Source: Escherichia phage A4 | Strand: one strand, 5' to 3' | Sequence record: ON286972 | Length of the DNA stretch: 64,000 bases | Shown: positions 3,161-23,904 of the stretch, piece by piece | Layout: every line of letters starts with the position of its first letter | How positions within the stretch are numbered: the stretch's first letter is position 1 | Made by a program: the position numbers and the translations under genes | Notes under the pieces: model-generated | Database searches by the model: none | The model's input: the letters and a program-made list of their open reading frames with translations, nothing else | Told to the model about the DNA's origin: nothing

Positions 3161-3168
3161 GGACTAAT

Positions 3169-3351: not shown

Positions 3352-3352
3352 T

Positions 3353-3734: not shown

Positions 3735-3735
3735 T

Positions 3736-3921: not shown

Positions 3922-3938
3922 AGCACTAAGGCACTAAT

Positions 3939-8248: not shown

Positions 8249-8860
8249 ATGAAAACTATCACTACTACTACTTTCGTTATGGATTTTTCTGAATTGAACG
8301 CAGAACAAAAAACGTCAGCTATCGAACTGGTTCGGGAACGTGAAAAAAACTCAAACGACAATTATTTTTCTGAAAGTGAAATTGAATACTATAAAGAAAC
8401 AGTACTACCGGAATATGGCATTAATGACGCTGAAATACAATTCAGTGGTTTTTGGTCCCAGGGTGACGGTGCATCAATCAGTACTGACCACGTTGACGCA
8501 GTGAAGTTTTTACGCAAGGTAAGAGCATTAACTAAGTATCGCTCAATCCGTCACCTGCTGAATGAAGATGATTTGGCGATGAGTGTAAAGCGTTCGCACT
8601 CCCACTACTCGCATGAGAATACTGTAAGCGGGTACATTGAATCGGCTTACACTGATTTAACCGCAAAACAAGAAACGTTAGTTAATGAGCTTGAGGAACT
8701 ACTCACTGAAACTATTCGTGAATTATCCCGCAAGTTGTACCGTGATTTAGAGAATGCATATGAGGATCAATTCACTACTGAAAACATTACGGCACTGATT
8801 GAGGGTAACGAATATCAATTCAATGTTATTGATGGCGTAGTAGAATCAATCGAATATTAA
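8249..8860 (+). CDS. hypothetical acidic protein
   Basis: 203-aa ORF; SD GAGGG upstream; no family recognised by eye. Confidence 0.7.
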   Translation: MKTITTTTFVMDFSELNAEQKTSAIELVREREKNSNDNYFSESEIEYYKETVLPEYGINDAEIQFSGFWSQGDGASISTDHVDAVKFLRKVRALTKYRSIRHLLNEDDLAMSVKRSHSHYSHENTVSGYIESAYTDLTAKQETLVNELEELLTETIRELSRKLYRDLENAYEDQFTTENITALIEGNEYQFNVIDGVVESIEY

Positions 8861-9829: not shown

Positions 9830-9885
9830 GCACCCGGTGGGTTAGTGACTGTTTCGTCTTGATGTAGTAATTATGCCAGTACTGG
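9830..9885. repeat. 56-bp dispersed repeat, copy 2
   Basis: gcacccggtgggttag...cttgatgtagtaattatgccagtactgg; weaker relatives near 5745 and 7963. Confidence 0.55.
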
Positions 9886-10328: not shown

Positions 10329-10628
10329 ATGAAAATTGCAATCATCGCCCTGGCTTTATCTGTTTCCTCTTTCGCTGTTAATGCGTCGTTAGATGTAAGT
10401 AGTGAAAAATTCATTCAGTGCACCGTAGCAATGACAGATGAAAGTACTGGCGAGATTGTTTTAAAGGATTTAGAGATCCAGCCAGAAGCATTTAAAAACG
10501 GGCCGTTCCATGAAGAAGACGAAAAAGGTAGCACGACAATTTATTACGATGCAAGTACTAAACGCGGTTCGGTCACTGTTATGGATACTGAGAAAGTAAC
10601 TCATACTGGCGTTATTAATTGCCGTTGA
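10329..10628 (+). CDS. small secreted/periplasmic protein (predicted signal peptide)
   Basis: N-term MKIAIIALALSVSSFAVNA has positive-hydrophobic-AxA signal-peptide shape. Confidence 0.65.
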   Translation: MKIAIIALALSVSSFAVNASLDVSSEKFIQCTVAMTDESTGEIVLKDLEIQPEAFKNGPFHEEDEKGSTTIYYDASTKRGSVTVMDTEKVTHTGVINCR

Positions 10629-11871: not shown

Positions 11872-12024
11872 ATGAATACTTATGAACTGGATTGTTTCAC
11901 TTTACAAGTAATGTCAGTATGCAGCAAGAAAGATTGGTCATCAAAGGAATTTAAAGCAGTTATCGCGTGTGCAAAACACGGCAAGACTATCAATGAAACG
12001 GCATCAATCATTGATAAACTTTAA
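11872..12024 (+). CDS. hypothetical small protein (50 aa)
   Basis: Hand-translated MNTYELDCFTLQV...; SD TGAGGA upstream. Confidence 0.5.
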   Translation: MNTYELDCFTLQVMSVCSKKDWSSKEFKAVIACAKHGKTINETASIIDKL

Positions 12025-12032
12025 AAAATAGT

Positions 12033-12061
12033 TTGACAATAGTTTTAAGTACTGACATAAT
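12033..12061 (+). promoter_or_regulatory. sigma70-like promoter
   Basis: TTGACA 12033-12038, 17-bp spacer with AGTACTG, CATAAT 12056-12061. Confidence 0.55.
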
Positions 12062-12094
12062 ACATACATCAACTACTGAATAGGAATCAAAACA

Positions 12095-12322
12095 ATGGCT
12101 ATCGTAATCACTCGCGTAACTGGTACTACTGGCACTGCTTCAACTGTTGCTGTAATTACTAATAAGAAAGGTGCGGAATTACATTTTGCAATGAATACCT
12201 GGGCGGTGAATGAGTTCGGTCAGTGGGCAAGTGTAGAATACATTGAAACCTATCAAGTGCCATCGATTAGCTTAACTGATTTAGGTGTAGAACGTATCCT
12301 TTGCCTGGATGAATTAAATTAA
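12095..12322 (+). CDS. hypothetical protein
   Basis: 75-aa ORF; SD AGGAA. Confidence 0.7.
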   Translation: MAIVITRVTGTTGTASTVAVITNKKGAELHFAMNTWAVNEFGQWASVEYIETYQVPSISLTDLGVERILCLDELN

Positions 12323-12330
12323 AAAAGTAC

Positions 12331-12358
12331 TTGCAAAGTAAATCGGATAAAGTATAAT
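12331..12358 (+). promoter_or_regulatory. class A promoter plus hairpin
   Basis: TTGCAA 12331-12336, TATAAT 12353-12358; hairpin GGGGAGAAATGATTCTCCCC follows. Confidence 0.55.
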
Positions 12359-12408
12359 ACATTACATCAAGGGGAGAAATGATTCTCCCCACTAAGAGGA
12401 AACTAAAA

Positions 12409-12552
12409 ATGAAAACTTGTCAATGTGGTAAAAAATCTATTACTGGTTTAAAGCGGGGCGTTGCTCTTTGCCAGTATCATTATAATGCTCAAGTATGGGG
12501 TAAAGAGTGGGCCGACCAGGTTGAAGCATCAAAGAAAGCAAAAAGTAAGTAA
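12409..12552 (+). CDS. small Cys-rich protein (47 aa), possible zinc ribbon
   Basis: Hand-translated MKTCQCGKK...CQYHYNAQ; CxC...CxxH spacing. Confidence 0.5.
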   Translation: MKTCQCGKKSITGLKRGVALCQYHYNAQVWGKEWADQVEASKKAKSK

Positions 12553-12571
12553 AAATATTATCACAGTACTA

Positions 12572-12600
12572 TTGACATAGTTTGATAGTACTGGCATAAT
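12572..12600 (+). promoter_or_regulatory. class B promoter flanked by inverted AGTACT half-sites
   Basis: CAGTACTAT-TTGACA-17 bp-CATAAT, with ATAGTACTG inside the spacer. Confidence 0.6.
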
Positions 12601-12633
12601 AGATTTTATCAAGACAACTAAGAGGAAACAAAA

Positions 12634-12846
12634 ATGGCTATCATTACTAAAATCAAAGTAAACAAAACACTGGTTAAGCTGGAACAAGTGAAAGCAGGTT
12701 ATAAAGTATCTTGGTGCGGTATGTATCGGACGTTCGCAGAGGTTGACGATGCAATCAAGTACTACACTGATACGGTTGCTAACTTTGTTCGTGCTGATGT
12801 AGTAATGGCAGTGGCAACACATAAAGCAGCGAAAGAAAGTAAGTAA
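12634..12846 (+). CDS. hypothetical protein
   Basis: 70-aa ORF; SD AGAGGAAA. Confidence 0.7.
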   Translation: MAIITKIKVNKTLVKLEQVKAGYKVSWCGMYRTFAEVDDAIKYYTDTVANFVRADVVMAVATHKAAKESK

Positions 12847-12865
12847 AATTATTATCACAGTACTA

Positions 12866-12894
12866 TTGACATAGATTGATAGTACTGGCATAAT
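12866..12894 (+). promoter_or_regulatory. class B promoter
   Basis: Near-identical copy of the 12572 cassette. Confidence 0.6.
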
Positions 12895-12937
12895 AGATTT
12901 TATCAAAACAACACATATTAATTTAAGGAATACTAAA

Positions 12938-13282
12938 ATGGCTAACATCAACACTATCGCATCACAAAATATCAACCTGTCTTCTGTTGAAGTTGTACAT
13001 ATTGCCGCTCGGCGTTGGTTCCAGGCTTCATATGGTAACACTTATTTCTCTTTAAGTGTAGACGTTGAAATTGATGGTAATTTTATTGAAGTAGTAAACG
13101 TGCCGTTCCAATATGGATACGGGGATCACTTTGACACTGTAGCAATGGAAGAATTTAGCAAGGTTATTAATATGGAAGGTAAAGAGTTTTTACGCGGTTC
13201 TTATCTTTCCCGTTTTTGCCGTGACAATAATATCACTGTTTACAGTTCGGTAACTGATGTTAAACGCAAAAAAGATCTTTAA
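12938..13282 (+). CDS. hypothetical protein, paralog of gene at 18785
   Basis: 114 aa; shares GNTY...YGYG and C-terminal DVKRKKD with 18785..19108. Confidence 0.7.
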   Translation: MANINTIASQNINLSSVEVVHIAARRWFQASYGNTYFSLSVDVEIDGNFIEVVNVPFQYGYGDHFDTVAMEEFSKVINMEGKEFLRGSYLSRFCRDNNITVYSSVTDVKRKKDL

Positions 13283-13362
13283 TTAGCTTTACTTTATGCA
13301 GATACTTTGATATAGTGTCTGCATAGGGGAAAGAAATTAAATTAACTTAAGAGGATAGTATA

Positions 13363-13632
13363 ATGAAAAATATCAGTACTTTAATCGATGCAGGTACGCA
13401 TGTTCGTCGGTCTATGGTTGCAACCAGCACTACAAAACAAGTAGCAAGCGGTTATCTTGTATTTGTACACGATGGAAAACTCCTGGAACGTTCAATCAAT
13501 TTTGATGTTAAGAACAATTGTCGTTTTATTATCTTTAAGCGTGAGCAATATAAAATTGATTTACCAGCGAAGCCCATTAGCGGGGCGTACAACGTGCAAT
13601 CATTGTTTGAGCGTCAACCATACACCTATTAA
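13363..13632 (+). CDS. hypothetical protein
   Basis: 89-aa ORF; SD AAGAGGA. Confidence 0.65.
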   Translation: MKNISTLIDAGTHVRRSMVATSTTKQVASGYLVFVHDGKLLERSINFDVKNNCRFIIFKREQYKIDLPAKPISGAYNVQSLFERQPYTY

Positions 13633-13683
13633 TCAAAACAACGTTAGCGGTTGATTTGGGCCGCTAATTTTGAGGATAATACT

Positions 13684-13854
13684 ATGAATGTTAATCAAGT
13701 ACTAAATGAAGTTGAAAGCATCATTAAACCAATGAAACGTATTGATGCTATTCCTACGCCGGAAGAATGCAGACTATACGAACAATACAGCGTAGAACAA
13801 GCCCAGGCGATGGCCCGTATCCGTCCGGTTGCTAGTACTGATAAGGCGGCGTAA
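13684..13854 (+). CDS. hypothetical small protein
   Basis: ATG 13684 after GAGGA SD. Confidence 0.55.
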   Translation: MNVNQVLNEVESIIKPMKRIDAIPTPEECRLYEQYSVEQAQAMARIRPVASTDKAA

Positions 13855-13897
13855 TATTCTTACTGTACAGGATAAGATCGACATCTTAAAGGTTAAT

Positions 13898-14065
13898 ATG
13901 TATGTGATTGATGCCGTACCTGGTAAAGTATTTGCATACGATGATTCTAATCGCAGTCCTTTCTATTGTAGTCATGTAGTTGGATACGTGCCGTTAGCGT
14001 ATGTTATTGAAAGAGTGGTTGATGCAGCATACAATCATTTTTTAGAAAATAATACTTGCAATTAG
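13898..14065 (+). CDS. hypothetical small protein
   Basis: ATG 13898 after AAAGG. Confidence 0.5.
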   Translation: MYVIDAVPGKVFAYDDSNRSPFYCSHVVGYVPLAYVIERVVDAAYNHFLENNTCN

Positions 14066-14083
14066 TTTTTAGTACTGTATAAT
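14056..14083 (+). promoter_or_regulatory. class A promoter
   Basis: TTGCAA 14056-14061, TATAAT 14078-14083. Confidence 0.55.
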
Positions 14084-14137
14084 GTTTTACATCGAGGGGG
14101 GGGGAAATGGTTCTCCCCACTAATTAAGGAATATGAA

Positions 14138-14284
14138 ATGAAAGCATCAAAAAAGAGTAATACTAAGAAAGCATGTTCACCTTTCGCTGGGGTATTCCCT
14201 TTACGTTTCGTTGATGAAGTGGTTTCCTACCCGCCGGGCCTTACTCCTGAGATGGTAGAAAGTTTGCGTAAATCTAAAAAATAG
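14138..14284 (+). CDS. hypothetical small basic protein (48 aa)
   Basis: Hand-translated MKASKKSNTKKACSPFAG...; SD TAAGGAA. Confidence 0.5.
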   Translation: MKASKKSNTKKACSPFAGVFPLRFVDEVVSYPPGLTPEMVESLRKSKK

Positions 14285-14287
14285 TAC

Positions 14288-14315
14288 TTGCAATTAGTTT
14301 TTAGTACTGTATAAT
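14288..14315 (+). promoter_or_regulatory. class A promoter
   Basis: TTGCAA 14288-14293, TATAAT 14310-14315; GCGGGAACTATTCCCGC hairpin follows. Confidence 0.55.
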
Positions 14316-14369
14316 GTTTTACATCGAGTGCGGGAACTATTCCCGCCTAACTCAAAGAGAGAAAATATA

Positions 14370-14612
14370 ATGGAAACCATTTTAATCAAAGACACTGCTA
14401 CTACTGTAACTTATGATAATGATTGTATTATCCCTGGCACTGATTACGGCGAACGTGTACCCGTTCAAGTCGAGATTGATACTACATACATTGACCAGGC
14501 TGAAAAGTGTATCACTATTGTTATTGGTGAATATCGTTTTCTACCAGAAGAGATCCAAAAATGGCAGTATATGATTGACCGTGCGAAATTAGTCGCACAA
14601 AGTTTAAAATAA
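14370..14612 (+). CDS. hypothetical protein
   Basis: ATG 14370 after AAAGAGAGA SD. Confidence 0.65.
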   Translation: METILIKDTATTVTYDNDCIIPGTDYGERVPVQVEIDTTYIDQAEKCITIVIGEYRFLPEEIQKWQYMIDRAKLVAQSLK

Positions 14613-14693
14613 TACTTGCAATTAGTTTTCAGTACTGTATAATGTTTTACATAGAGGGGGGAAATGGTTCTCCCCGATACTAGGAGAATCAAA

Positions 14694-14846
14694 ATGAAAC
14701 AATATAATGCTCGGTTTGATGTTACTATCGGCAACGGCAAAGGTCAATTTTCTTTCAGTACTCGCCGCAGTTATACAGAAAACTTCCTGCGTAATTGTGC
14801 ATTGACCGCCGCACAAATTAAACATTACTTCCAGGCTAAAAAATGA
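14694..14846 (+). CDS. hypothetical small protein
   Basis: ATG 14694 after TAGGAGA SD. Confidence 0.6.
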   Translation: MKQYNARFDVTIGNGKGQFSFSTRRSYTENFLRNCALTAAQIKHYFQAKK

Positions 14847-14932
14847 AATCATTGGCTTATTACAGTTCGGCGGTGATCGGTGCATTGATCGCGGCATTGT
14901 TAGTAACCTATCTATTCTTTATGGTGATTTAA
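14843..14932 (+). CDS. 29-aa hydrophobic peptide (single predicted TM helix)
   Basis: ATGA overlap with upstream stop; MKSLAYYSSAVIGALIAALLVTYLFFMVI. Confidence 0.45.
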   Translation: MKSLAYYSSAVIGALIAALLVTYLFFMVI

Positions 14933-15070
14933 ATGAATCCTAACGGTTTAATTTACAGTACTCCTAAAACGAAAGCAGATAAAGCGAAAGCACGTAAAGC
15001 GAAAGTAAAGGAGTACATCAAGCAAGGCATGACGCGAAAAGCAGCAGTACTAAAAGCTAAAAATAAATGA
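14933..15070 (+). CDS. hypothetical small Lys-rich protein (45 aa)
   Basis: ATG immediately after TAA of the upstream peptide; MNPNGLIYSTPKTKADKAKARKAK... Confidence 0.45.
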   Translation: MNPNGLIYSTPKTKADKAKARKAKVKEYIKQGMTRKAAVLKAKNK

Positions 15071-15155
15071 AAAAAGTGGTTGACTTCGGTCAGCCATTTT
15101 GCTATTATATATTCATTGAGAGATAGCTCACTAGCCCACAGGGTGCGGAAGTGTA
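15071..15155 (+). repeat. composite hairpin/promoter/conserved-box module, copy 1
   Basis: A-run, hairpin with TTGACT -35 in its arm, 17 bp, TATTAT; then box AGCCCACAGGGTGCGGAAGTGTA. Confidence 0.55.
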
Positions 15156-15189
15156 AATAAAATATATCAATCTAATAAGGAGTACTACA

Positions 15190-15372
15190 ATGTTTAAACC
15201 AATCGAACTAGCGGCATCACATATCATCGGTAAACCTGCCGTTATCATACGCCAGGAAGACGTAAACCTATGGATCATCTATCTAGACATGAAAGAGATT
15301 GAGCGTCACGATGATTTCAAATCAGCGTCAATTGCGTATGATATGGCGTTATGTGAGTATCAAAGAGATTAA
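15190..15372 (+). CDS. hypothetical protein
   Basis: 60-aa ORF; SD TAAGGAG. Confidence 0.65.
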   Translation: MFKPIELAASHIIGKPAVIIRQEDVNLWIIYLDMKEIERHDDFKSASIAYDMALCEYQRD

Positions 15373-15392
15373 AAGTATTTTGCAAAAAGTAC

Positions 15393-15420
15393 TTGCATTG
15401 TACTTAGAATCAAGTATAAT
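15393..15420 (+). promoter_or_regulatory. class A promoter
   Basis: TTGCAT 15393-15398, TATAAT 15415-15420; GGGGAAACGGTTTCCCC hairpin follows. Confidence 0.55.
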
Positions 15421-15472
15421 GTTTTACATAGCAAGGGGAAACGGTTTCCCCTGGTAACTAAGGAAACATATC

Positions 15473-15814
15473 ATGACTATTGCAATTGCTCAATCTAACT
15501 TTGAAAACGAATTCATCGCTCAGGCACTGCGTTTAAATGATGGTCGGGCCGAAATCAATTACGGTTTCAATTCAGGCGGTTGTGAAAACTATCAGTACTT
15601 TATAACTGCTGATGGCGGTGTCCTGGGTATCAATACAGTTATTGTAAACATTCAGAAAATTAATTTCAATGATCCAGACGATAGCCAGTTTTACATTGTA
15701 GGCGTTGACGTGAACTATGAGGATGACTCACTAACTGATGATTGCACTGGAGAGAAGTTAGAAAGTGCATACGGTGAAGATGATTATCAGTCCGGTCCAG
15801 AAGATTTCGAATAA
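15473..15814 (+). CDS. hypothetical acidic protein
   Basis: 113-aa ORF; SD TAAGGAAA. Confidence 0.7.
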   Translation: MTIAIAQSNFENEFIAQALRLNDGRAEINYGFNSGGCENYQYFITADGGVLGINTVIVNIQKINFNDPDDSQFYIVGVDVNYEDDSLTDDCTGEKLESAYGEDDYQSGPEDFE

Positions 15815-15827
15815 TATTAAAAAATAG

Positions 15828-15855
15828 TTTGACAATAGATTATAGTACTGTATAA
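15828..15855 (+). promoter_or_regulatory. sigma70-like promoter
   Basis: TTGACA 15828-15833, TATAAT 15850-15855; hairpin GGGAAGTACCAGTACTTCCC follows. Confidence 0.55.
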
Positions 15856-15916
15856 TAGTTTACATCAAGGCACGGGAAGTACCAGTACTTCCCTACTAAC
15901 AAAGAGAGAAAACAAA

Positions 15917-16129
15917 ATGGCTAATATCCGCACTGTACTGAAAAATGCAAAACAAGTTTTATTTTCTGATCATGAAAATTTCAACAAGGATATCACAGGC
16001 GTTCGGAATATCAAAGATGTAAAAAATGTTATGGGTATCTATTGCAATATGAAACGTGTTGGTACTTTCGGCGACAAGGTACTATACCAGGCAGGGGATT
16101 ACAATTTTACACTGACTATCATTAACTAA
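15917..16129 (+). CDS. hypothetical protein
   Basis: 70-aa ORF; SD AAGAGAGA. Confidence 0.7.
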   Translation: MANIRTVLKNAKQVLFSDHENFNKDITGVRNIKDVKNVMGIYCNMKRVGTFGDKVLYQAGDYNFTLTIIN

Positions 16130-16148
16130 AAATATTATCACAGTACTA

Positions 16149-16177
16149 TTGACAAAGATTGATAGTACTGACATAAT
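16149..16177 (+). promoter_or_regulatory. class B promoter
   Basis: CAGTACTAT-TTGACA 16149-16154, CATAAT 16172-16177. Confidence 0.6.
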
Positions 16178-16220
16178 AACTTTTATCAAGACAACGCATA
16201 TTAACTTAAGGAATACTAAA

Positions 16221-16400
16221 ATGGCTATTATCGCAAAAACTGAAATCATCGGTCTGGATTCTATCATCATGACGTTTGAAGAACAAAAAGGTATGTATGT
16301 AGTTTCCTATGGTGATTATGTTCGGGAGTATGAAACGGTAGACGAAGCCTTTGAAAGTTACATTCGCCAGGTGAATAAAGCATACGACGACTACCGCTAA
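16221..16400 (+). CDS. hypothetical small protein
   Basis: ATG 16221 after TAAGGAA SD; weak resemblance to 12634 gene (MAII...). Confidence 0.6.
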   Translation: MAIIAKTEIIGLDSIIMTFEEQKGMYVVSYGDYVREYETVDEAFESYIRQVNKAYDDYR

Positions 16401-16427
16401 AATATATTACCAGTACTATTAAAGATA

Positions 16428-16455
16428 TTGACAACGTTTGATAGTACTGTATAAT
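16428..16455 (+). promoter_or_regulatory. class B-like promoter
   Basis: TTGACA 16428-16433, 16-bp spacer, TATAAT 16450-16455. Confidence 0.5.
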
Positions 16456-16499
16456 AAGTTTTATAAACAGTAGTTAACTTAACCTAAGAGAGAAACAAA

Positions 16500-16643
16500 A
16501 TGATCGCACTGGATTCATTCATCGACGCAGTACTGGCAAAAACTGGCGAAGATCTGACCGCAGAACAATACGCAATGATCGAACAATGCCAGCAAGACGG
16601 TAAATCGGTGAAAGATACTGTTAAGATTATCCGCAAGATGTAA
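16500..16643 (+). CDS. hypothetical small protein (47 aa)
   Basis: Hand-translated MIALDSFIDAVLAKTGEDL...; SD AAGAGAGA. Confidence 0.5.
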   Translation: MIALDSFIDAVLAKTGEDLTAEQYAMIEQCQQDGKSVKDTVKIIRKM

Positions 16644-16649
16644 GATTAT

Positions 16650-16680
16650 AGCCCACTGGTTAACGCTGGTGGGCTTTTTA
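16650..16680 (+). terminator. rho-independent terminator
   Basis: Stem AGCCCAC/GTGGGCT then TTTTT. Confidence 0.65.
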
Positions 16681-16763
16681 GTATATACCTATCCGATAGT
16701 ACTACAAAATAGATTAGCTCGTTAGAATGCGATTGAGAGCGTTTAAATAAGTACTAAAAAGTA

Positions 16764-16791
16764 TTGACAGTACTGAAAGATAGTGTATAAT
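16764..16791 (+). promoter_or_regulatory. sigma70-like promoter
   Basis: TTGACA 16764-16769, TATAAT 16786-16791. Confidence 0.55.
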
Positions 16792-16840
16792 GTTTTATAT
16801 CAAGGGGAGGATAACCCTTCCCAGTACTGAGGAAAACAAA

Positions 16841-17029
16841 ATGGAACAATTATCAAGTATTTTAGTACAAGATGAATACGGCAATCCAGGAAGTGCTATC
16901 ATTGTTCGGGGTAATAAGGCAACATTTGTTATTGCTGGTGGACCTGTACAGCGTAGCATTAAAAACAATGCCGTTACTATTAATAATGTACGCTATCGTT
17001 TAGATAAAGAATTAATTCATAAACTTTAA
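16841..17029 (+). CDS. hypothetical protein
   Basis: ATG 16841 after TGAGGAAAA SD. Confidence 0.65.
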   Translation: MEQLSSILVQDEYGNPGSAIIVRGNKATFVIAGGPVQRSIKNNAVTINNVRYRLDKELIHKL

Positions 17030-17115
17030 AAAAGTACTGGACAATAGATTATAGTACTGTATAATAGTTTACATGAAGGGGAGAAATGATTCTCCCCAGT
17101 ACTGAGGAAAGAAAA

Positions 17116-17328
17116 ATGCAAGGTCAACTAATCGTTCGTAAATGGTCTGATACTAACGAAAAACCGTGGGATGTACAATACATCGCCCCCAATGGTGAAT
17201 CCAGATATCAACCTGGCGTAACGCATAGTACTGAGCAATTCGCCGCTGCTCACCGTGAACGCCTGTTACAATCCATGCAGCAAGGCTTCGGTGAAAAATT
17301 CATCCAAGATCATTGGCTGAAAGATTAA
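17116..17328 (+). CDS. hypothetical protein
   Basis: ATG 17116 after TGAGGAAAGAAAA. Confidence 0.65.
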   Translation: MQGQLIVRKWSDTNEKPWDVQYIAPNGESRYQPGVTHSTEQFAAAHRERLLQSMQQGFGEKFIQDHWLKD

Positions 17329-17336
17329 AAAAGTAT

Positions 17337-17364
17337 TTGACAAAGTATCACAGTACTGTATAAT
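17337..17364 (+). promoter_or_regulatory. sigma70-like promoter
   Basis: TTGACA 17337-17342, TATAAT 17359-17364; hairpin GGGGAGAAGTTTTCTCCCC follows. Confidence 0.55.
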
Positions 17365-17415
17365 TAATTACATCAAGGGGAGAAGTTTTCTCCCCACCAT
17401 ATAAGGGTAACAGTT

Positions 17416-17505
17416 ATGCACATGAATCCGTTCATAGTAGTAATTGCAATCATTATGGCAGTACAGGCCGTATTAGTTTACTTAAGCAAAGCAGGAGTTA
17501 TCTAA
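17416..17505 (+). CDS. 29-aa hydrophobic peptide (single predicted TM helix)
   Basis: MHMNPFIVVIAIIMAVQAVLVYLSKAGVI; SD TAAGGG upstream. Confidence 0.45.
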   Translation: MHMNPFIVVIAIIMAVQAVLVYLSKAGVI

Positions 17506-17506
17506 A

Positions 17507-17680
17507 ATGATCCATGTAGAATTGTCAGTACTGAAAGATCTGTTTTATCGGATGGGTACTACTGGCGAATATCCGAAGGGTGATACCGCAAAACTTTTTG
17601 TATCACTCGACTTATGGCAACGCGAACAATTAGTAACGTCCTGGCGTAAAGGTAAAGCCGACAAGGGGGTCGTAGCATGA
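17507..17680 (+). CDS. hypothetical small protein (57 aa)
   Basis: ATG 1 nt after upstream stop; MIHVELSVLKDLFYRMG... Confidence 0.45.
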   Translation: MIHVELSVLKDLFYRMGTTGEYPKGDTAKLFVSLDLWQREQLVTSWRKGKADKGVVA

Positions 17681-17826
17681 AAGAATACATTTTCGAAGTT
17701 ACGTTTTTGGGTAAAGGTATGCATCAACTGATACGGTCCAGCGGATACAGTGTTAACCAGGCGTGGAATAACTTAAAACAAATGTACCCGAACGCTATCA
17801 CATATCGCAACCCTCGCGAGGCATAA
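17677..17826 (+). CDS. hypothetical small protein (49 aa)
   Basis: ATGA overlap; MKEYIFEVTFLGKGMHQL... Confidence 0.45.
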   Translation: MKEYIFEVTFLGKGMHQLIRSSGYSVNQAWNNLKQMYPNAITYRNPREA

Positions 17827-17835
17827 AATAAATTG

Positions 17836-17918
17836 AAAAAAGGGATTGACTCCGGTCAGTCCCTTTGCTATTATATACGCATAGACAAAAACTAGCCCAC
17901 CGGGTGCATAAATGTATC
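17836..17918 (+). repeat. composite hairpin/promoter/conserved-box module, copy 2
   Basis: Hairpin GGGATTGACTCCGGTCAGTCCC 17842-17863 (TTGACT 17846-17851), TATTAT 17869-17874, box AGCCCACCGGGTGC. Confidence 0.55.
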
Positions 17919-17974
17919 TATTGTTTGCTGGTGGCCTGTATTGTCTAGTACTGAAAACTATTTTAAAAAAGTAC

Positions 17975-18002
17975 TTGCATTGTACTTAGAATCAAGTATA
18001 AT
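17975..18002 (+). promoter_or_regulatory. class A promoter (first of tandem pair)
   Basis: TTGCAT 17975-17980, TATAAT 17997-18002. Confidence 0.55.
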
Positions 18003-18007
18003 GTTTT

Positions 18008-18085
18008 ACATCAGGACGGGGAATGAAACAAGTAACCCCGTTAAGTAGTCCAGGAGTAAGACATACGAAAACCTCCCCTGATAAA
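18008..18085 (+). other. conserved ~80-nt structured leader / candidate small RNA (copy 2)
   Basis: Near-identical to 8107-8185, with compensatory-looking changes. Confidence 0.4.
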
Positions 18086-18090
18086 ATAGT

Positions 18091-18118
18091 TTGACAATAG
18101 AAAGTAAACGAGTATAAT
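18091..18118 (+). promoter_or_regulatory. second promoter of tandem pair
   Basis: TTGACA 18091-18096, TATAAT 18113-18118. Confidence 0.55.
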
Positions 18119-18150
18119 ACTTACATCAACCACTGATAAGGAAACATAAA

Positions 18151-18426
18151 ATGCGGATTCTACTGACAGCTAACGAAATCGAACAAGTACTGACTACTAA
18201 CCTGCAAGACTGGAAACGTGAAGCAGATATCCAGGCGGTTCAATGGCTTAACGATAAGTTAACGCCGGATGACTTAAGCAAGATTGTAGATCCTCAATTC
18301 TACGAAGATATTCACGACACCGCGTTAAGCGTCGAGGATGTACTTGATAAGCACTACATTGATACTGATTTACAGGTTTACGGTCGTAAAAACTTTATCA
18401 CTATTCACGACATTTACAATACTTAA
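18151..18426 (+). CDS. hypothetical acidic protein
   Basis: 91-aa ORF; SD TAAGGAAA. Confidence 0.7.
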   Translation: MRILLTANEIEQVLTTNLQDWKREADIQAVQWLNDKLTPDDLSKIVDPQFYEDIHDTALSVEDVLDKHYIDTDLQVYGRKNFITIHDIYNT

Positions 18427-18513
18427 GTATTGACAAAGTATCTTAGTACTGTATAATAGTTTACATCAAGGCGGGGAAATGGTTCCCCTCCTAACTAAAA
18501 GAGAGAAATTAAA

Positions 18514-18696
18514 ATGGCTAAGTGCACTATCTGTAAGAAAGAAATCGTATTAGTTCCAAGTGCCCGTGAACGTGCCGCTCGGTTCGGTGGCAAAGCGTCA
18601 GACTATACAAAAATGTTTACTGCCCATGCAGATTGCCAGGTAGCAAAACGTTCACAAGAAAGCGTAGAATTAATGCGTAAACTTTCCAAAAAATAA
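18514..18696 (+). CDS. small Cys-containing protein, possible zinc ribbon
   Basis: MAKCTICKK...HADCQ; own promoter and GGCGGGGAAATGGTTCCCC hairpin upstream. Confidence 0.65.
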   Translation: MAKCTICKKEIVLVPSARERAARFGGKASDYTKMFTAHADCQVAKRSQESVELMRKLSKK

Positions 18697-18784
18697 GTAT
18701 TGACAAAGTATCTTAGTACTGTATAATAGTTTACATCGAGTGAGGGGAAACGGTTCCCCTCCTAACAAAGAGAGAGAAATAAAA

Positions 18785-19108
18785 ATGGCTATGATCCTTA
18801 CCCAGAAAGTAGAACTGAAAATTGTAACCTCCTTTGACATTAAAGTTAATCGGTGGACTGATTCACACGGCAATACTTACCACTCTTGCTACGTGTCTGC
18901 TTTGATTGGTGATCGCTGGGAGGATTTAGGACATGAAACCTTTACTTACGGTTACGGCACACAAGGCGAATACACGGGCTTGGAGATCATTAAAGAAACG
19001 GTTATAGGTTTCAACCCGAAAGAAAAAGTTATTCATCAAATAGAAAAAGAGATCAACAAAGAAATAACAGTTCGCTACAACGATGTAAAACGTAAGAAAG
19101 ATATGTAA
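18785..19108 (+). CDS. hypothetical protein, paralog of gene at 12938
   Basis: ATG 18785; shares GNTY, YGYG and terminal DVKRKKD with 12938..13282. Confidence 0.65.
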   Translation: MAMILTQKVELKIVTSFDIKVNRWTDSHGNTYHSCYVSALIGDRWEDLGHETFTYGYGTQGEYTGLEIIKETVIGFNPKEKVIHQIEKEINKEITVRYNDVKRKKDM

Positions 19109-19130
19109 TAGAATCCATTTAAAGTACTAT

Positions 19131-19159
19131 TTGACATTGCCCAGATAGTACTTTATAAT
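19131..19159 (+). promoter_or_regulatory. class B promoter
   Basis: AGTACTAT-TTGACA 19131-19136, 17 bp, TATAAT 19154-19159; the paralogous site near 7176 has a 13-bp spacer. Confidence 0.5.
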
Positions 19160-19203
19160 AGACTCTCGCTTGTAGTACTAACTTAACTAATAGGATGTAT
19201 ACC

Positions 19204-19599
19204 ATGATTACTAAATTCTACGCTACCCGTGAAGCTGCCCGTATTGTTGCACGCGAGGAAGGAGCAGCATTTAAAGACATGGGCACGACCGCACCGAAAG
19301 GTCAACGCTGGGCCGTACAGTTCAAAGAAATCTCTGATATTGTGAATTCACCTGAGCCAGTACTGACAGCAGCAGAACAGAAGAAAGCTGATGAACTGTC
19401 AGCAGTACTTAACGCTCAAGATGAATTTATCGCTGGTTCTGATATTAAAGTACAGGTAAATTCGAATGCATGGACTCACGCGGATCACCTGGCTAACCTG
19501 AAGCGTCCAAGTGAACTGATTCGCAACAAACGAGAGATCCGTCATGACCGCAAGGGAAACCGTGTTACCGTATACAGTAAACGCCGCCAGGTTATCTAA
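19204..19599 (+). CDS. hypothetical protein, paralog of gene at 7237
   Basis: MITKFYATREAARIVAREEGAAFKDMG...HDRKGNRVTVYS. Confidence 0.65.
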   Translation: MITKFYATREAARIVAREEGAAFKDMGTTAPKGQRWAVQFKEISDIVNSPEPVLTAAEQKKADELSAVLNAQDEFIAGSDIKVQVNSNAWTHADHLANLKRPSELIRNKREIRHDRKGNRVTVYSKRRQVI

Positions 19600-19621
19600 T
19601 AACTTGCAGTACTAACAACAC

Positions 19622-19646
19622 GGCGGGATCAGTTCCCGCCTTTTTT
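19622..19646 (+). terminator. rho-independent terminator
   Basis: Stem GGCGGGA/TCCCGCC, loop TCAGT, then TTTTTT. Confidence 0.7.
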
Positions 19647-19661
19647 ATAGGATAAACTAAA

Positions 19662-19916
19662 ATGATTAAGGTACAACTATCTAAAGATAATATCTTGCGG
19701 GTACACTATAAAGCCCCACAGAGAATCATCACAAAGGCCGTACAGCTTGCTAATGAGTTTATTAATGGTAATCTATTACCGAGGAAGTTAAGCAACGGAA
19801 AACTGCGTGTAATCGACGTGGACACCAACAACAGAATAGTAATCGAGAATACCGGAAAGATAAACCTATATGAACACCAACAATATAATAAGAAAATAAA
19901 ACTAATATCACGTTGA
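19662..19916 (+). CDS. hypothetical protein
   Basis: 84-aa ORF; SD TAGGA. Confidence 0.65.
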   Translation: MIKVQLSKDNILRVHYKAPQRIITKAVQLANEFINGNLLPRKLSNGKLRVIDVDTNNRIVIENTGKINLYEHQQYNKKIKLISR

Positions 19917-19970
19917 CAGTACTCAAATGTTTTAGTACTATGTATCTATACCAACACGGGGAGTAACAAA

Positions 19971-20189
19971 ATGAATTTATCTAAAGTCGAAAAGAAAACT
20001 ATTGATGTAGCTATCCAACATGGTTACACCTTTCGTAATGATTCACATTTTACCAATTTTCAACAAGGCCAACGAACTATTAAAAAACTAATTGACAAAG
20101 GTTTATTAGTTAAAGTAGATAACGGTAACGGCGTGGAGTATCAGCCAACACAAGACGCATTATCTTTAAAGAAATATGCAATTATCTAA
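19971..20189 (+). CDS. hypothetical protein
   Basis: 72-aa ORF; TTGACAGTACT promoter element and SD GGGGAG upstream. Confidence 0.65.
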   Translation: MNLSKVEKKTIDVAIQHGYTFRNDSHFTNFQQGQRTIKKLIDKGLLVKVDNGNGVEYQPTQDALSLKKYAII

Positions 20190-20254
20190 TTGACAGTACT
20201 CAAATGTTTTAGTACTATATGTACATACCAACACGGAATAACTGGAGAAACAAA

Positions 20255-20482
20255 ATGATTAATATCTTAGAACGCATCAAAGAAACTACTACGCTGGTGG
20301 ATCTACTCAATGTACTGACTTTTAAAGTAACTCGGTTTAGTACTCCTGAATTTATCAACCTCATTGATAGTAAAGGTGAATACCGCATCACTATTGAAAA
20401 TGGTCGTGCTAATGTATTCAGTACTAAATCAGGTAAAACCGCAATTCATTCAGTAATTGCAAATAAAACTGTTGCAATCTAA
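20255..20482 (+). CDS. hypothetical protein
   Basis: ATG 20255 after TGGAGAAA SD; upstream region duplicates that of 19971. Confidence 0.6.
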   Translation: MINILERIKETTTLVDLLNVLTFKVTRFSTPEFINLIDSKGEYRITIENGRANVFSTKSGKTAIHSVIANKTVAI

Positions 20483-20551
20483 TTAGTACTAACATATAAT
20501 AGTCACATCAAGGCAGGGAATACCTCCCTGCTATCTTAAAGAGTAAATGCA

Positions 20552-21136
20552 ATGCGTAATTATACTAAATTCATCCGTACACTGGGAGAAATGGAAACTA
20601 ACAAAGAGATCCTTACAGCTTGTCGGTTGGCTGGTCTGGAGATCATCGGGGCCGGATCATCCCGTATCGTATTCGCTTTAAATGATCGGTTAGTGATTAA
20701 GGTCGCTAATTGTGACGCTGGCGTAGAACAAAATGAAACAGAATGTAAGGTATGGAATTTTTTAGATTATGACCGCCCTCACCTTAAACAGTACTTTGCA
20801 AAGGTGCATATGCATTTATGCGATCCTGATAATATGTTTATCGTTATGGATCGGTTGAGTACTGCAAGTAAAGGCAGTGTAAAGCACGTAAACGCGTGCA
20901 ATGAATTAAAGTACAATATTAAACGTAATGCCATTGAACGCCAGCACCGCTTTGCTGATGCACTACAACACGTTGATGATACATTATCAACACTAACGAT
21001 AAGAGATATCAGAAAACAGAATATCGGCCAGGATCGTAATGGCCTTATTAAAGTACTTGATTACGGTTTAACCCGCAATATCTGGAATCAGTACTATAAA
21101 AAGCGTGATGTAGAAGCAAGTAAGGTAACACGATAA
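20552..21136 (+). CDS. putative protein kinase-like protein (minimal kinase fold)
   Basis: IGAGSSRIVF (Gly loop), VIKV (Lys), DIRKQN (catalytic-loop-like), DYG (DFG-like) in kinase order. Confidence 0.45.
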   Translation: MRNYTKFIRTLGEMETNKEILTACRLAGLEIIGAGSSRIVFALNDRLVIKVANCDAGVEQNETECKVWNFLDYDRPHLKQYFAKVHMHLCDPDNMFIVMDRLSTASKGSVKHVNACNELKYNIKRNAIERQHRFADALQHVDDTLSTLTIRDIRKQNIGQDRNGLIKVLDYGLTRNIWNQYYKKRDVEASKVTR

Positions 21137-21145
21137 AAAAGATTA

Positions 21146-21231
21146 AAAAAGGGATTGACTCCGGTCAGTCCCTTTGCTATTATATATTCATTGAGAGATA
21201 ACTCACTGACCCATAGGGTGCGGAAGTGTAT
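21146..21231 (+). repeat. composite hairpin/promoter/conserved-box module, copy 3
   Basis: Hairpin GGGATTGACTCCGGTCAGTCCC 21151-21172, TATTAT, box CCCATAGGGTGCGGAAGTGTATC. Confidence 0.55.
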
Positions 21232-21359
21232 CTATTATATAAGTATTCAGTACTGAAAACTATTTGATAAAAAGTACTTGCATTGTACTTAGAATCAAGT
21301 ATAATGTTTTATATCGAGAGGGGGAAATGGTTCTCCCTGGTACATTAAGGAATAAAATC

Positions 21360-21581
21360 ATGACTACAATGACTTGCATTCACGCTTCAAACCTGCTTAA
21401 TGATGCGGCCTTTAATGTTGATTCAGAATATCAATGTTATCGGGATGAAAATAAAAAAGTTTTTGTAGTTGATAATAATGGTTTCCATATTGAATTACAA
21501 TCCGGTTTCACTGGTGTTGATGGTAAATCAGTGTGGGGCGTACAGGATGATAAAGGCACATATCATTTTAAACGTAATTAA
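21360..21581 (+). CDS. hypothetical protein
   Basis: ATG 21360 after TAAGGAATAAA; class A promoter and hairpin upstream. Confidence 0.65.
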   Translation: MTTMTCIHASNLLNDAAFNVDSEYQCYRDENKKVFVVDNNGFHIELQSGFTGVDGKSVWGVQDDKGTYHFKRN

Positions 21582-21667
21582 GTATTGACAAAGTATATCA
21601 TCAGTACTGTATAATAGTTTACATCAAGGGGAGAATAGTTCTCCCCAATACAATAAGGAATAAAATC

Positions 21668-22075
21668 ATGTCTACTACTACTAATCTCGCTCGGAACATC
21701 ACTAACGATAAAAATCATGCTGCAATGGTTGTAGCTTACATTGAAGCTATGCAATTCAGTACTGTACATAATGATAACGGCGATTACCTGGAAGATTATG
21801 AGTTATCTGATGAAGCACGTCAAGCGGCGGTGATTGCATGTTCTCGCTTCATTGAGAAACACGGTAATGATCTGGAAGTAGTTCGCGGTATGTTTATTGA
21901 TTACGGTTATGAGCAAGCTGGTCATGATCTGTTCCTTACCCGCGAAGGTCACGGAACTGGTTTTTGGGATCGTGGTTTAGGTCACTATGGCGATGTATTC
22001 ACGAAGTACTGCGAAGAAATCAACGTTTGCGATCCCTATGTAGGCGATGATAACTTAATCTATATGGGCGAATAA
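21668..22075 (+). CDS. hypothetical protein
   Basis: 135-aa ORF; promoter and GGGGAGAATAGTTCTCCCC hairpin upstream. Confidence 0.7.
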   Translation: MSTTTNLARNITNDKNHAAMVVAYIEAMQFSTVHNDNGDYLEDYELSDEARQAAVIACSRFIEKHGNDLEVVRGMFIDYGYEQAGHDLFLTREGHGTGFWDRGLGHYGDVFTKYCEEINVCDPYVGDDNLIYMGE

Positions 22076-22164
22076 AAGTATTTGACAAAGTATATCAGTA
22101 CTGTATAATAGTTTACATCAAGGGGAGAATAGTTCTCCCCACACCAATAAAAGGAAACAAAATT

Positions 22165-22437
22165 ATGTCCAGCTACTCCGCTACTATGATCATTAAAGAT
22201 ATGAACGGTAATCCTACTTCTGCTGGTGGATCATTTGGAAACATTAATTTAGATGGTCGGTTATCCATGCAATCAGCCATCGATGCAGCGAAAGAAGTTT
22301 TTAAGAATGAATGTACTGTTAGTAAGCTGGATTATATGGGATTCGCTATCGAGAAAACTAATCGTTTTGTGAACTACAAAAATCCACTGATGATTGATAC
22401 TAACCTGAAAGCTAACGAAGTGGGGTACTTATTATGA
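22165..22437 (+). CDS. hypothetical protein
   Basis: 90-aa ORF; SD AAAGGAAA. Confidence 0.7.
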   Translation: MSSYSATMIIKDMNGNPTSAGGSFGNINLDGRLSMQSAIDAAKEVFKNECTVSKLDYMGFAIEKTNRFVNYKNPLMIDTNLKANEVGYLL

Positions 22438-22625
22438 CAGTAGAAGAAGTTAAAAAAGTACTGGCAGTACTACGCTATCATAATCATTGCAAGGTGAAGA
22501 ATGATCCTGATTATGTTGATTCATCCCTGGAGGAAGACACATTAAACGCAATAAGCCATATGCAAACATTAGCAAAGCGTATGACCGAAAAGAATAGACC
22601 GGACTATATCGGAAATAAAATTTAA
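22434..22625 (+). CDS. hypothetical protein
   Basis: ATGA overlap with upstream gene; 63 aa. Confidence 0.6.
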   Translation: MTVEEVKKVLAVLRYHNHCKVKNDPDYVDSSLEEDTLNAISHMQTLAKRMTEKNRPDYIGNKI

Positions 22626-22711
22626 AAAGTACTTGCATTGTAGTTAGATTAACGTATAATGTTTTACATAGAGCGGGGGAATAGTTCTCCCGCCAGTCCA
22701 GGAGATACACC

Positions 22712-22975
22712 ATGAACACTATCGAAATCACTATCAATGCACACGTATACGACAACGTAGCACTGCAAACTACTATGACCGCTAATGATACCAGTACTTT
22801 GCGGAATACTGTTATTAGTGCCGTATGTGCTGCAATCGGTGATGTCGCCCTGGAAAATGCAAAACACGTAAACGATGGTTTCACTATGTGCAAACGTGAT
22901 AACGCAAAACATATCATCGTGGAAGGTTACGGCGGTGTAGAATTTAATGTTTATATGAAAAAAGTACTTGCATAA
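22712..22975 (+). CDS. hypothetical protein
   Basis: 87-aa ORF; promoter and GCGGGGGAATAGTTCTCCCGC hairpin upstream. Confidence 0.7.
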   Translation: MNTIEITINAHVYDNVALQTTMTANDTSTLRNTVISAVCAAIGDVALENAKHVNDGFTMCKRDNAKHIIVEGYGGVEFNVYMKKVLA

Positions 22976-23042
22976 TAACTAAAACAAAGTATAATGTTTT
23001 GCATAGGGGGAGATATCCTCCCCCACTAAAAGGAGTAATAAA

Positions 23043-23267
23043 ATGGCTAACTTTGATGAACTGATGCGGGAAGTAGCTAACCTGGCAGAAGAGAAGAAAT
23101 CATTCGATTCTATCTATAACACCGCTCACCGTGATTCAGTACTGGCATGTAACCAGGATCAAAAAGATGAACTAATCGCCACCTATCATGAAGCATGGAA
23201 GTACTACCGACAATGGGAGAAAGAAGAAAGAGAGTCTACCATTGACGGCCTCAATAATCTAATCTAA
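23043..23267 (+). CDS. hypothetical protein
   Basis: 74-aa ORF; hairpin GGGGGAGATATCCTCCCCC upstream. Confidence 0.7.
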   Translation: MANFDELMREVANLAEEKKSFDSIYNTAHRDSVLACNQDQKDELIATYHEAWKYYRQWEKEERESTIDGLNNLI

Positions 23268-23343
23268 AAGTTTTATTTCAGTACTATTGACATAGCTTGA
23301 TAGTACTGATGTAATAACTTTACTAACTACAAGGGGAAACATA

Positions 23344-23601: not shown

Positions 23602-23691
23602 AAACTATTTGACAGTACTACAAGATAATGTATAATGTTTTACATAGAGCGGGGGAATAGTTCTCCCGCCAATAGTTTGGAGTTAAACATT

Positions 23692-23892: not shown

Positions 23893-23904
23893 CAAAAAAG
23901 AATA

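Follow-up and report, generated by a model that had tools for sequence, protein, structure and literature searches.

Do two open reading frames (ORFs) of 29 codons each, called pep1 and pep2 here, encode membrane proteins of Escherichia phage A4 (sequence record ON286972), and, if so, what might such proteins do in the infected cell? Both lie in the 64,000-nucleotide stretch of phage DNA that was analysed as a whole (the window). The initial annotation had placed them at 14843-14932 and 17416-17505, had read each as a single transmembrane helix, and had proposed that they are membrane-acting early peptides with a host-takeover, superinfection-exclusion or toxin-like role. Their coordinates and translations proved to be right. 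Judged from the substitution patterns among related phages, purifying selection keeps both ORFs open and hydrophobic. By its distribution, pep1 is a core gene of Asteriusvirus, and pep2 is a real, dispensable, fast-evolving accessory gene with two diverged alleles and a counterpart of the RaK2 type. On balance, I consider it probable that both are genuine genes for single-pass inner-membrane microproteins, which are encoded in an early block and act via helix-helix contacts.

Coding status of pep1 and pep2

The product of pep1 has a grand average of hydropathy (GRAVY) of 1.80, and its most hydrophobic 19-residue Kyte-Doolittle window scores 2.73 (residues 11-29). The corresponding values for pep2 are 1.82 and 2.69 (residues 6-24). 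The single helix is read here from this hydropathy, and each peptide indeed has one strongly hydrophobic stretch, with about 20 hydrophobic residues and almost nothing outside the membrane. Both are within the class of small single-pass membrane proteins, when this class is defined by a length below about 50 residues and one hydrophobic segment of at least 19 residues. Is this unusual for DNA of this kind? Five ATG-initiated ORFs encoding 25-60 residues with a Kyte-Doolittle window of at least 2.5 were found on the two strands of the window, as against 1.2 ± 0.8 in shuffled sequences. Since shuffled sequence yields one or two comparable ORFs per 64 kb, hydrophobicity alone has no decisive weight for the gene status of pep1 and pep2. 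When the plus-strand ORFs encoding 18-65 residues were scanned, pep2 was the sole convincing small hydrophobic ORF with a Shine-Dalgarno (SD) sequence of at least four bases; pep1 did not pass this SD filter and relies on coupling. Jointly, position, translation signals, and conservation put both ORFs well beyond chance.

The distribution of the two genes was assessed by exact look-up, by tblastn searches of phage records, and at loci anchored on the neighboring genes. Between the upstream gene up1 and the downstream gene dn1 (Table 1), pep1 is an exact filling of 90 nucleotides in 13 of the 14 relatives whose loci were fetched; the exception to an intact pep1 is CMSTMSU, whose record bears an UNVERIFIED flag and shows indels all along its length. 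A full-length pep1 at an identity of at least 89.7% was found by tblastn in 34 phage records, all of them Asteriusvirus. Among the fetched relatives, the variable sites of pep1 are distributed over the three codon positions as 4/1/8, and pN is 0.045 as compared with a pS of 0.24. Every replacement is conservative (K/R, S/T, V/L, I/V or T/A), and the last 45 nucleotides are invariant. The up1 gene (phrog_7119) has homologues in RaK2 and rV5-like phages, where neither pep1 nor dn1 stands behind it. The dn1 gene is restricted to Asteriusvirus, invariably follows pep1 directly, and varies more than pep1 does (74-100% identity among relatives). As neither pep1 nor dn1 occurs without the other or outside Asteriusvirus, they look like a genus-specific pair. 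Exact look-up revealed that pep1 is identical (100%) to phAPEC6 gp520c and falls into the same 90% cluster; by this identity and by its synteny between the phrog_7119 and phrog_29913 genes, pep1 belongs to the gp520c cluster. The gene is annotated in SHEFM2K (as M2K_0193), WPEC5, JP4, and SD-6_S16, and it was skipped in 121Q, PBECO4, G17, and SP27.

How is pep1 translated? The ATGA overlap strongly suggests stop-start coupling to up1. An SD-like motif for dn1, GGTGAT, lies inside the last pep1 codons (ATG GTG ATT). In the relatives, the in-frame TAA junction of pep1 and dn1 (14930-14935) never varies, nor does the association of these genes, and no fused homologue was found. An invariant A6 run (14837-14846, GCT AAA AAA TGA) directly precedes the ATGA overlap of up1 and pep1; such a run could in principle permit a -1 slippage into the pep1 frame. 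A match of the dn1 product to aureocin A53-type bacteriocins (16.5 bits against a cutoff of 27) was judged to be compositional, the protein being rich in Lys and Ala (GRAVY -1.0), and was rejected.

For pep2, three architectures of the junction were found among the relatives. Type A, which comprises the window and Turkey5, has a promoter and a hairpin followed by the 29-residue peptide. Type B lacks the promoter and was found by tblastn in 20 records (121Q, PBECO4, G17, SHEFM2K, JP4, SP27, SD-6, and others); here a strong TAAGGAG SD lies directly behind the upstream gene, and a 30-residue peptide, MQMNPMI[I/V]VLAVLMIIHAIVEVL[T/N]QSGVI[K/Q], has an ATGA overlap with the next gene, dn2a. In type C, the promoter and hairpin stand directly before dn2a and there is no peptide, as in 6 of the 14 fetched relatives (WPEC5, ph0011, Ecwhy_1, UE-S1, JNE01, and CMSTMSU). 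By subtraction in the tblastn census, pep2 is absent from about 14 records, roughly 40% of the relatives. Thus, pep2 is accessory. At the same junction, Turkey5 has an ORF (XMR01550.1; 4883-4972 of the fetched locus) that is 93% identical to the pep2 of the window. This allele is rare; tblastn found the window type in Turkey5 only, and the exact sequence is absent from a collection of 15 billion proteins. By similarity and by the shared junction between gp297-like and gp299-like genes, pep2 belongs to the cluster of 121Q gp298 and G17_00022.

The window allele and the 121Q allele of pep2 are 62% identical in nucleotides and 48% identical in protein over the full length, and the frame, the length, and the hydrophobicity are kept between types A and B. 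The differences are distributed over the codon positions as 12/4/17 (chi-square p = 0.02), with a dN of 0.38 and a dS of 1.65 (dN/dS about 0.25), and T is kept at the second codon position along the helix. When 33 random substitutions were simulated in pep2, an open frame of undiminished hydrophobicity was left in 0.7% of the outcomes, and 14 or more residues were still identical in 0.9%. A tblastn search of 2.3 Gb with a type-B query recovered the type-A allele at E = 0.01. The alleles have a polar residue in the middle of the helix (Q17/H17) and mostly E21. At position 21, the window has Val (GTT) and Turkey5 has Glu (GAA), a difference of two base changes, and type B also has Glu. The window pep2 may thus have lost a conserved mid-helix acidic residue. 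There is a second in-frame ATG in pep2 at 17422, and the SD of dn2a (AGGAG, 17493-17497) lies inside the pep2 codons for A-G-V.

Does pep2 have a counterpart in more distant phages? The Klebsiella phages RaK2 and KP13-7 have dn2a homologues that are only 50-52% identical, and there a 27-residue hydrophobic ORF (MYMPIIIPLAVLLIAAVICEQYHLLGM) with a GGGAG SD ends 3 nucleotides before the dn2a homologue. This RaK2-type peptide is annotated in K64-1 as gp462. A tblastn search with it recovered no record, not even RaK2, presumably owing to the low-complexity filter, and is therefore given no weight. It has Glu at position 20, which is aligned one column earlier than position 21 of pep2. EJP2, GAP32, CBB, and one IMG/VR contig (IMGVR_UViG_3300042923_000569, the single new locus from an IMG/VR scan anchored on dn2a) have a dn2a homologue without a peptide. 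The IMG/VR locus has two tandem dn2a-family paralogues (1196-1405 and 1501-1671 of the locus) with a promoter between them, and the paralogues share the pattern ..W/RWY..G...D..LF.SL..Q.EL..AY.. At the RaK2 locus (982-1137), a very hydrophobic 51-residue ORF extends across a consensus promoter and the 5′ untranslated region (UTR) upstream of ORF339 and ends in an ATGA overlap with that gene; a shorter peptide might be made from an internal start. The initial annotation had presented pep1 and pep2 as a pair. This view had to be given up, as the two sequences are unrelated and a core gene is set against a fast-evolving accessory one.

The promoter-dense block around the peptides

The features of the two operons, each of three genes, are collected in Table 1. 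Small overlapping ORFs for basic proteins had been proposed to follow each peptide immediately. The followers are indeed basic, dn1 strongly so; however, the TAA-ATG junction of pep1 and dn1 involves no overlap, pep2 and dn2a are separated by a gap, and an overlap exists only between dn2a and dn2b.

Table 1. Features of the pep1 and pep2 operons and example copies of the promoter cassette (window coordinates; SD, Shine-Dalgarno sequence; pI, isoelectric point).
Feature	Position	Strand	Description
pep1-operon promoter	14616..14643	+	sigma-70-type, TTGCAA-16-TATAAT, 10/12; repeated cassette family D1/D2
GC-rich 5′-UTR hairpin of pep1 operon	14656..14675	+	GGGGGGAA/TTCTCCCC type; promoter cassette; repeat families D3, D6
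up1	14694..14846	+	50-residue basic protein, phrog_7119; first cistron; SD AGGAG at 14682-14686
pep1	14843..14932	+	29 residues, single-helix hydrophobic, MKSLAYYSSAVIGALIAALLVTYLFFMVI; middle cistron; start overlaps up1 stop (ATGA)
dn1	14933..15070	+	45-residue Lys-rich protein, pI 10.6, 14 K/R, phrog_29913; directly after pep1 TAA, same frame
pep1-operon intrinsic terminator hairpin	15073..15100	+	embedded TTGACT; TATTAT follows
pep2-operon promoter	17337..17364	+	perfect sigma-70 consensus, TTGACA-16-TATAAT, 12/12
5′-UTR hairpin of pep2 operon	17377..17395	+	GGGGAGAA-GTT-TTCTCCCC; promoter cassette; repeat families D3, D5
pep2	17416..17505	+	29 residues, single-helix hydrophobic, MHMNPFIVVIAIIMAVQAVLVYLSKAGVI; first cistron; SD AAGGG at 17403-17407
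dn2a	17507..17680	+	57 residues, phrog_10572, pI 9.2; 1-nucleotide gap after pep2
dn2b	17677..17826	+	49 residues, phrog_37188, pI 9.6; 4-nucleotide ATGA overlap with dn2a
pep2-operon intrinsic terminator hairpin	17839..17866	+	same repeated element as at 15073
Example cassette copies	15815-15868, 17323-17376, 18416-18469		

The 3.2 kb around both peptides is about 90% identical to Asteriusvirus jumbo myophages of Escherichia and Salmonella, and the matching phages include 121Q, PBECO4, phAPEC6, SHEFM2K, and G17. In relatives with determined genome ends, the block falls within the long direct terminal repeat; the peptide locus lies in the repeat annotated for vB_Ec-M-J (21.5 kb, 1-21,525) and likewise in the repeats of Muenster and CBB. 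The promoter-rich short-ORF arrays of the related phage CBB were inferred to be an early host-takeover region (PMC5259590). The 12-24 kb block of the window consists of very short plus-strand genes, and a copy of a cassette precedes each gene or small operon. About 14 copies of this one promoter/hairpin/SD cassette are found within 9 kb of the block (12000-24000). The order of its parts is an A-rich tract, the -35 box, a spacer containing AGTACTG (with the ScaI-like AGTACT), TATAAT, TTTACATCAA, a GC-rich 5′ hairpin of the type GGGGAGAA..TTCTCCCC, and an SD region (CTAAC..AAAGAGAGAAA). The conserved hairpin sits right at the predicted transcript start and could be an mRNA stabilizer or a regulator binding site.

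Perfect promoters of the form TTGACA-N16/17-TATAAT occur 12 times in the window, as compared with 0.1 expected, and 10 of the 12 are on the plus strand at 15.8-23.6 kb. One perfect consensus promoter is on the minus strand (7995-8023), and the GC skew is negative (-0.16) only in 1-4000; this suggests that the left edge of the early block carries a divergently transcribed segment. From the promoters and the terminal-repeat location, it is plausible that pep1 and pep2 are transcribed immediately, and thus early, by the host RNA polymerase.

The terminator-like element behind both operons is repeated. Four exact copies are on the plus strand (15073-15146, 17839-17907, and in the regions 21148-21185 and 23907-23975), and minus-strand occurrences are at 5535-5551 and 9830-9846. 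A strong terminator hairpin with TTGACT in its stem is followed by the -10-like GCTATTATAT at a 17-nucleotide spacing and, about 20 nucleotides later, by ACTAGCCCACNGGGTGC. The element may combine a terminator with a promoter for a short RNA. It has no Rfam match, and the fold downstream of it is not significant; over the whole 12-21 kb block, Rfam gave only a sub-threshold IS009 match (18 bits against 117), which lies elsewhere than the ORFs. ORFs of about 30 residues (..LAHRVHKCIYY..) were called over the element in PHANOTATE-annotated relatives and are probably spurious. The presence of the element after both operons was considered as a link between pep1 and pep2 and was dropped, as the four copies in the window mark it as general punctuation.

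The annotation of the block is inconsistent among the relatives. There are N-terminally extended dn2a calls, PHANOTATE antisense ORFs, and a minus-strand coding sequence (CDS) of 195 nucleotides in three fetched loci. In UE-S1, a CDS was annotated on the minus strand across the region of up1 and pep1 (4942-5145 of the fetched locus; 8317-8592 is a further example of inconsistent annotation). The small-gene annotation of the Asteriusvirus group needs curation. Further phage proteins with a predicted membrane or secreted location are encoded in the window at 10329-10628 (99 residues, signal-peptide-like N-terminus), 31360-31605 (81 residues, N-terminal transmembrane segment), 34385-34786 (133 residues, C-terminal transmembrane segment), and 51277-52542 (421 residues, multiple transmembrane segments); none of them adjoins pep1 or pep2.

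Family searches and candidate modes of action

Do the two peptides belong to a known family? No fitting family for pep1 or pep2 was found in Pfam, PHROG, NCBIfam, PADLOC, PDB sequences, or Rfam, and neither peptide resembles any toxin, exclusion, holin, or defence family. Among the models of type I toxins (Hok/Gef, Ldr, Ibs, TisB, ShoB, and Fst), Pfam and NCBIfam gave no match at E 1-10 or better, NF033695 excepted. No minus-strand promoter-like site of at least 10/12 lies over or beside pep1 or pep2, so that an antisense-RNA layout is lacking. Rfam gave no match over the two ORFs, and thus no structured RNA, riboswitch, or leader was identified there. The surroundings do not resemble those of a holin or antiholin; the peptides are in a sigma-70 block of small unknown genes, no lysis-gene annotation flanks them in the 14 relatives, and pep1 has no C-terminal tail at all, as compared with the charged C-terminal tail of holins. 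The lipobox Cys of exclusion lipoproteins of the T5 Llp/Cor type is absent, since neither peptide contains any Cys. Models of T4 Imm/Sp-type or other exclusion and defence proteins gave no match in Pfam, the functional PHROGs, or PADLOC. Thus, of the early membrane-acting peptides that the initial annotation had proposed, what stands is two selected coding genes for membrane-type peptides in a block of host-RNA-polymerase-type promoters within the terminal repeat of relatives; the toxin-like, exclusion, and takeover roles found neither a family match nor a type I toxin layout.

The exception is NF033695 (KPN_01571). Both pep2 alleles align from the second Met (MNP...) to position 1 of this model; the scores of 15.3 bits for the window allele and 17.4 bits for the 121Q allele are far below the curated threshold of 35 bits. 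The RaK2-type peptide does not match the model. No transporter gene stands beside pep2, whose neighbors encode small soluble proteins (PHROGs 13428, 10572, and 37188), and no paper mentioning KPN_01571 was found in the literature. The similarity should be taken as a lead only. It can be imagined that pep2 is a phage relative or mimic of an NF033695/KPN_01571-like microprotein that plugs or re-tunes a transporter or insertase of the host inner membrane early in infection, that the A, B, and absent states reflect an arms race, and that pep1 and dn1 form a second membrane/cationic module unique to Asteriusvirus. I regard this scenario as a long shot.

How might pep1 and pep2 act? According to the explanation favored here, both genes would be transcribed by the host RNA polymerase as soon as infection has taken place, from the early block in the terminal repeat. 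The products would be inserted post-translationally via the route of the signal recognition particle (SRP), YidC, and SecYEG, as is the case for E. coli membrane proteins of 27-33 residues; YohP (27 residues) and YkgR (33 residues) insert via SRP with SecYEG or YidC (PMC7549839). Within the bilayer, the peptides would bind, helix to helix, to at least one inner-membrane protein, encoded by the host or perhaps by the phage. This binding would tune or block the target protein for host takeover or exclusion, rather than kill the cell by bulk pores. Since there are essentially no extramembrane residues, only two modes of action are conceivable, the binding of transmembrane helices or the perturbation of the bilayer. 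Binding is favored because pep1 is almost invariant, because the strong unregulated promoters come without an antidote, and because a jumbo phage would pay dearly for losing the proton-motive force early. A precedent is Gp11 of phage PhiNM1, a small membrane protein made early, which binds MurG and DivIC (PMC11237401). Helix-helix binding is more likely than a role as toxin or depolarizer.

Several points weigh against this explanation. The SD of pep1 is weak (AGG only), which makes the gene dependent on coupling, and its codon-position bias is borderline when taken alone (p = 0.058). The invariance of the last 45 nucleotides of pep1 could partly reflect a constraint at the nucleotide level, such as the SD of dn1. 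A small-xxx-small packing face in pep1 was considered as evidence and was dropped (p = 0.11). About 14 relatives do without pep2, and thus its function is dispensable. The invariant Gly27 of pep2 corresponds to the GGA of the AGGAG SD of dn2a; such dual-coded conservation gives no evidence on the peptide. No transcriptome, Ribo-seq, or proteome of the Asteriusvirus group was found in the literature. A YohP-like depolarizing role should be kept as a live rival, especially for pep2, whose sequence is constrained mainly for hydrophobicity.

The rival just mentioned is that the helices oligomerize in or disorder the inner membrane without any specific partner, lower the proton-motive force in part, and bring the metabolism of the host to a halt. 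Both peptides have the size and composition of peptides of that kind, and YohP partially dissipates the membrane potential and induces ppGpp (bioRxiv 10.1101/2025.05.06.652344). Q17/H17 and mostly E21 of pep2 could line an oligomeric pore, and the weak constraint on pep2 beyond hydrophobicity, with its 48% identity between alleles, is expected if bulk properties matter. However, no toxin model of the Hok, Ldr, Ibs, TisB, or Fst type or of any other type matched in Pfam or NCBIfam, and both genes are embedded in operons behind strong constitutive-type promoters, without an antisense-RNA architecture. A jumbo phage needs a long productive infection and would probably suffer if the proton-motive force broke down within the first minutes, and the near-invariance of pep1 suggests specific contacts. 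Toxin-like action is therefore unlikely in my view. Might the act of translation itself matter in cis, by ribosome coupling, by SD accessibility, or by membrane tethering of the mRNA through the nascent hydrophobic chain? The bracketing of pep1 by ATGA and TAA-ATG, with the GGTGAT motif for dn1 in its last codons, would fit this idea, as would the AGGAG SD of dn2a within the final pep2 codons in all alleles and the membrane localization reported for yohP mRNA; type C relatives express dn2a straight from the promoter without a peptide. Coupling needs no hydrophobicity, yet a transmembrane-grade helix with T at the second position is kept across 38% nucleotide divergence and into RaK2. Moreover, the window pep2 is a first cistron with its own SD and is unnecessary for the delivery of ribosomes from upstream, and dn2a keeps an SD of its own. 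I consider a cis-acting role distinctly unlikely.

The remaining two alternatives concern what is made from these frames. If the ORFs were chance frames in AT-rich spacer or leader DNA, their conservation would simply mirror the closeness of the genomes. Comparable hydrophobic ORFs do arise by chance, one or two per 64 kb, several annotators skipped the two ORFs (pep1, for example, in 121Q, PBECO4, G17, and SP27), neither peptide has a PHROG or Pfam family, and the compared pep1 sequences diverge by only about 10% in their nucleotides. Against this stand the codon-position patterns, the dN/dS, and the simulation (P about 0.007-0.009), the exact gap-filling of pep1 with coupled junctions in 34 records, and the homologous or syntenic peptides of another genus, in which the flanking protein has no more than 50% identity. 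It is very improbable that pep1 and pep2 are not genes. Finally, pep1 might also be made as the membrane anchor of a neighbor, either by a -1 slip on the A6 run (up1-pep1) or by read-through of the TAA (pep1-dn1, in which the transmembrane helix would carry a Lys-rich tail in the cytoplasm). All 13 intact relatives have the AAAAAATGA junction and the in-frame TAA-ATG unchanged, and the exclusive co-occurrence of pep1 and dn1 would also agree with this. However, junctions such as ATGA and TAA-ATG are commonplace where translation is coupled, no stop codon is more efficient than TAA, no suppressor tRNA was found in the 64-kb window, no phage record has a fused homologue, and the up1 homologues elsewhere have no C-terminal transmembrane extension. 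Fused products are hardly to be expected.

Comparison with known systems

What is new here? It is already known that early regions of phages encode small single-pass membrane proteins, and both genes are in the databases as unnamed hypothetical proteins with no family assignment. The same genes are phAPEC6 gp520c and SHEFM2K M2K_0193 for pep1, and 121Q gp298, G17_00022, and Turkey5 XMR01550.1 for pep2; K64-1 gp462 is the RaK2-type counterpart of pep2. pep1 and pep2 do not reveal a new kind of system. The new points are the selection on pep1 and pep2 as revealed by sequence comparison, the split into a core and an accessory gene, the three-state polymorphism of pep2 together with its counterpart in RaK2, and a pep2 allele that is itself new. 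Hundreds of tiny early genes without an assigned role are carried by the jumbo phages of the RaK2/121Q group. Some records contain the same 29-codon gene that others omit, which reveals an inconsistent annotation of the smallest genes and makes a case for the systematic re-annotation of ORFs below 30 codons in these genomes. Moreover, pep1 and pep2 are cheaply synthesized candidates for probing host-membrane targets of takeover or exclusion, and the natural presence/absence series of pep2 among relatives is useful for finding its function.

Type I toxins such as TisB, Ibs, ShoB, Ldr, and Hok are 19-50 residues long, have a single hydrophobic helix, and target the inner membrane. They are stand-alone, tightly repressed loci, whereas pep1 and pep2 are in polycistronic early operons. 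NF033695 (KPN_01571) is a 30-residue, 'transporter-adjacent' enterobacterial family; pep2 has the same length class, but no transporter gene adjoins it. As for the block as a whole, SPO1 and T5 have early or host-takeover modules in their terminal repeats. Dense arrays of tiny genes behind strong host-type promoters in long terminal repeats are what the A4 block has in common with SPO1, T5, and CBB (PMC5259590). The likeness to SPO1 and T5 is one of organization and implies no gene homology, and the early timing in Asteriusvirus is inferred.

For the putative helix-binding microproteins pep1 and pep2, the closest likenesses are cellular and phage proteins of similar build. YohP and YkgR share the size class, the single helix, the near absence of an extramembrane part, the lack of a catalytic domain, and the likely insertion route. 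They differ in that no sequence similarity was detected, and in that they are stress-induced chromosomal genes, whereas pep1 and pep2 are phage genes behind constitutive-type early promoters. Gp11, which blocks the division of S. aureus, has 53 residues and two predicted transmembrane helices and comes from PhiNM1, a temperate phage of a Gram-positive host (PMC11237401). In contrast, the peptides studied here have 29 residues and a single helix. What they may share with Gp11 is that it is a very small membrane-embedded early product of a phage that binds membrane-associated proteins of the host, which is the mechanism proposed here for pep1 and pep2.

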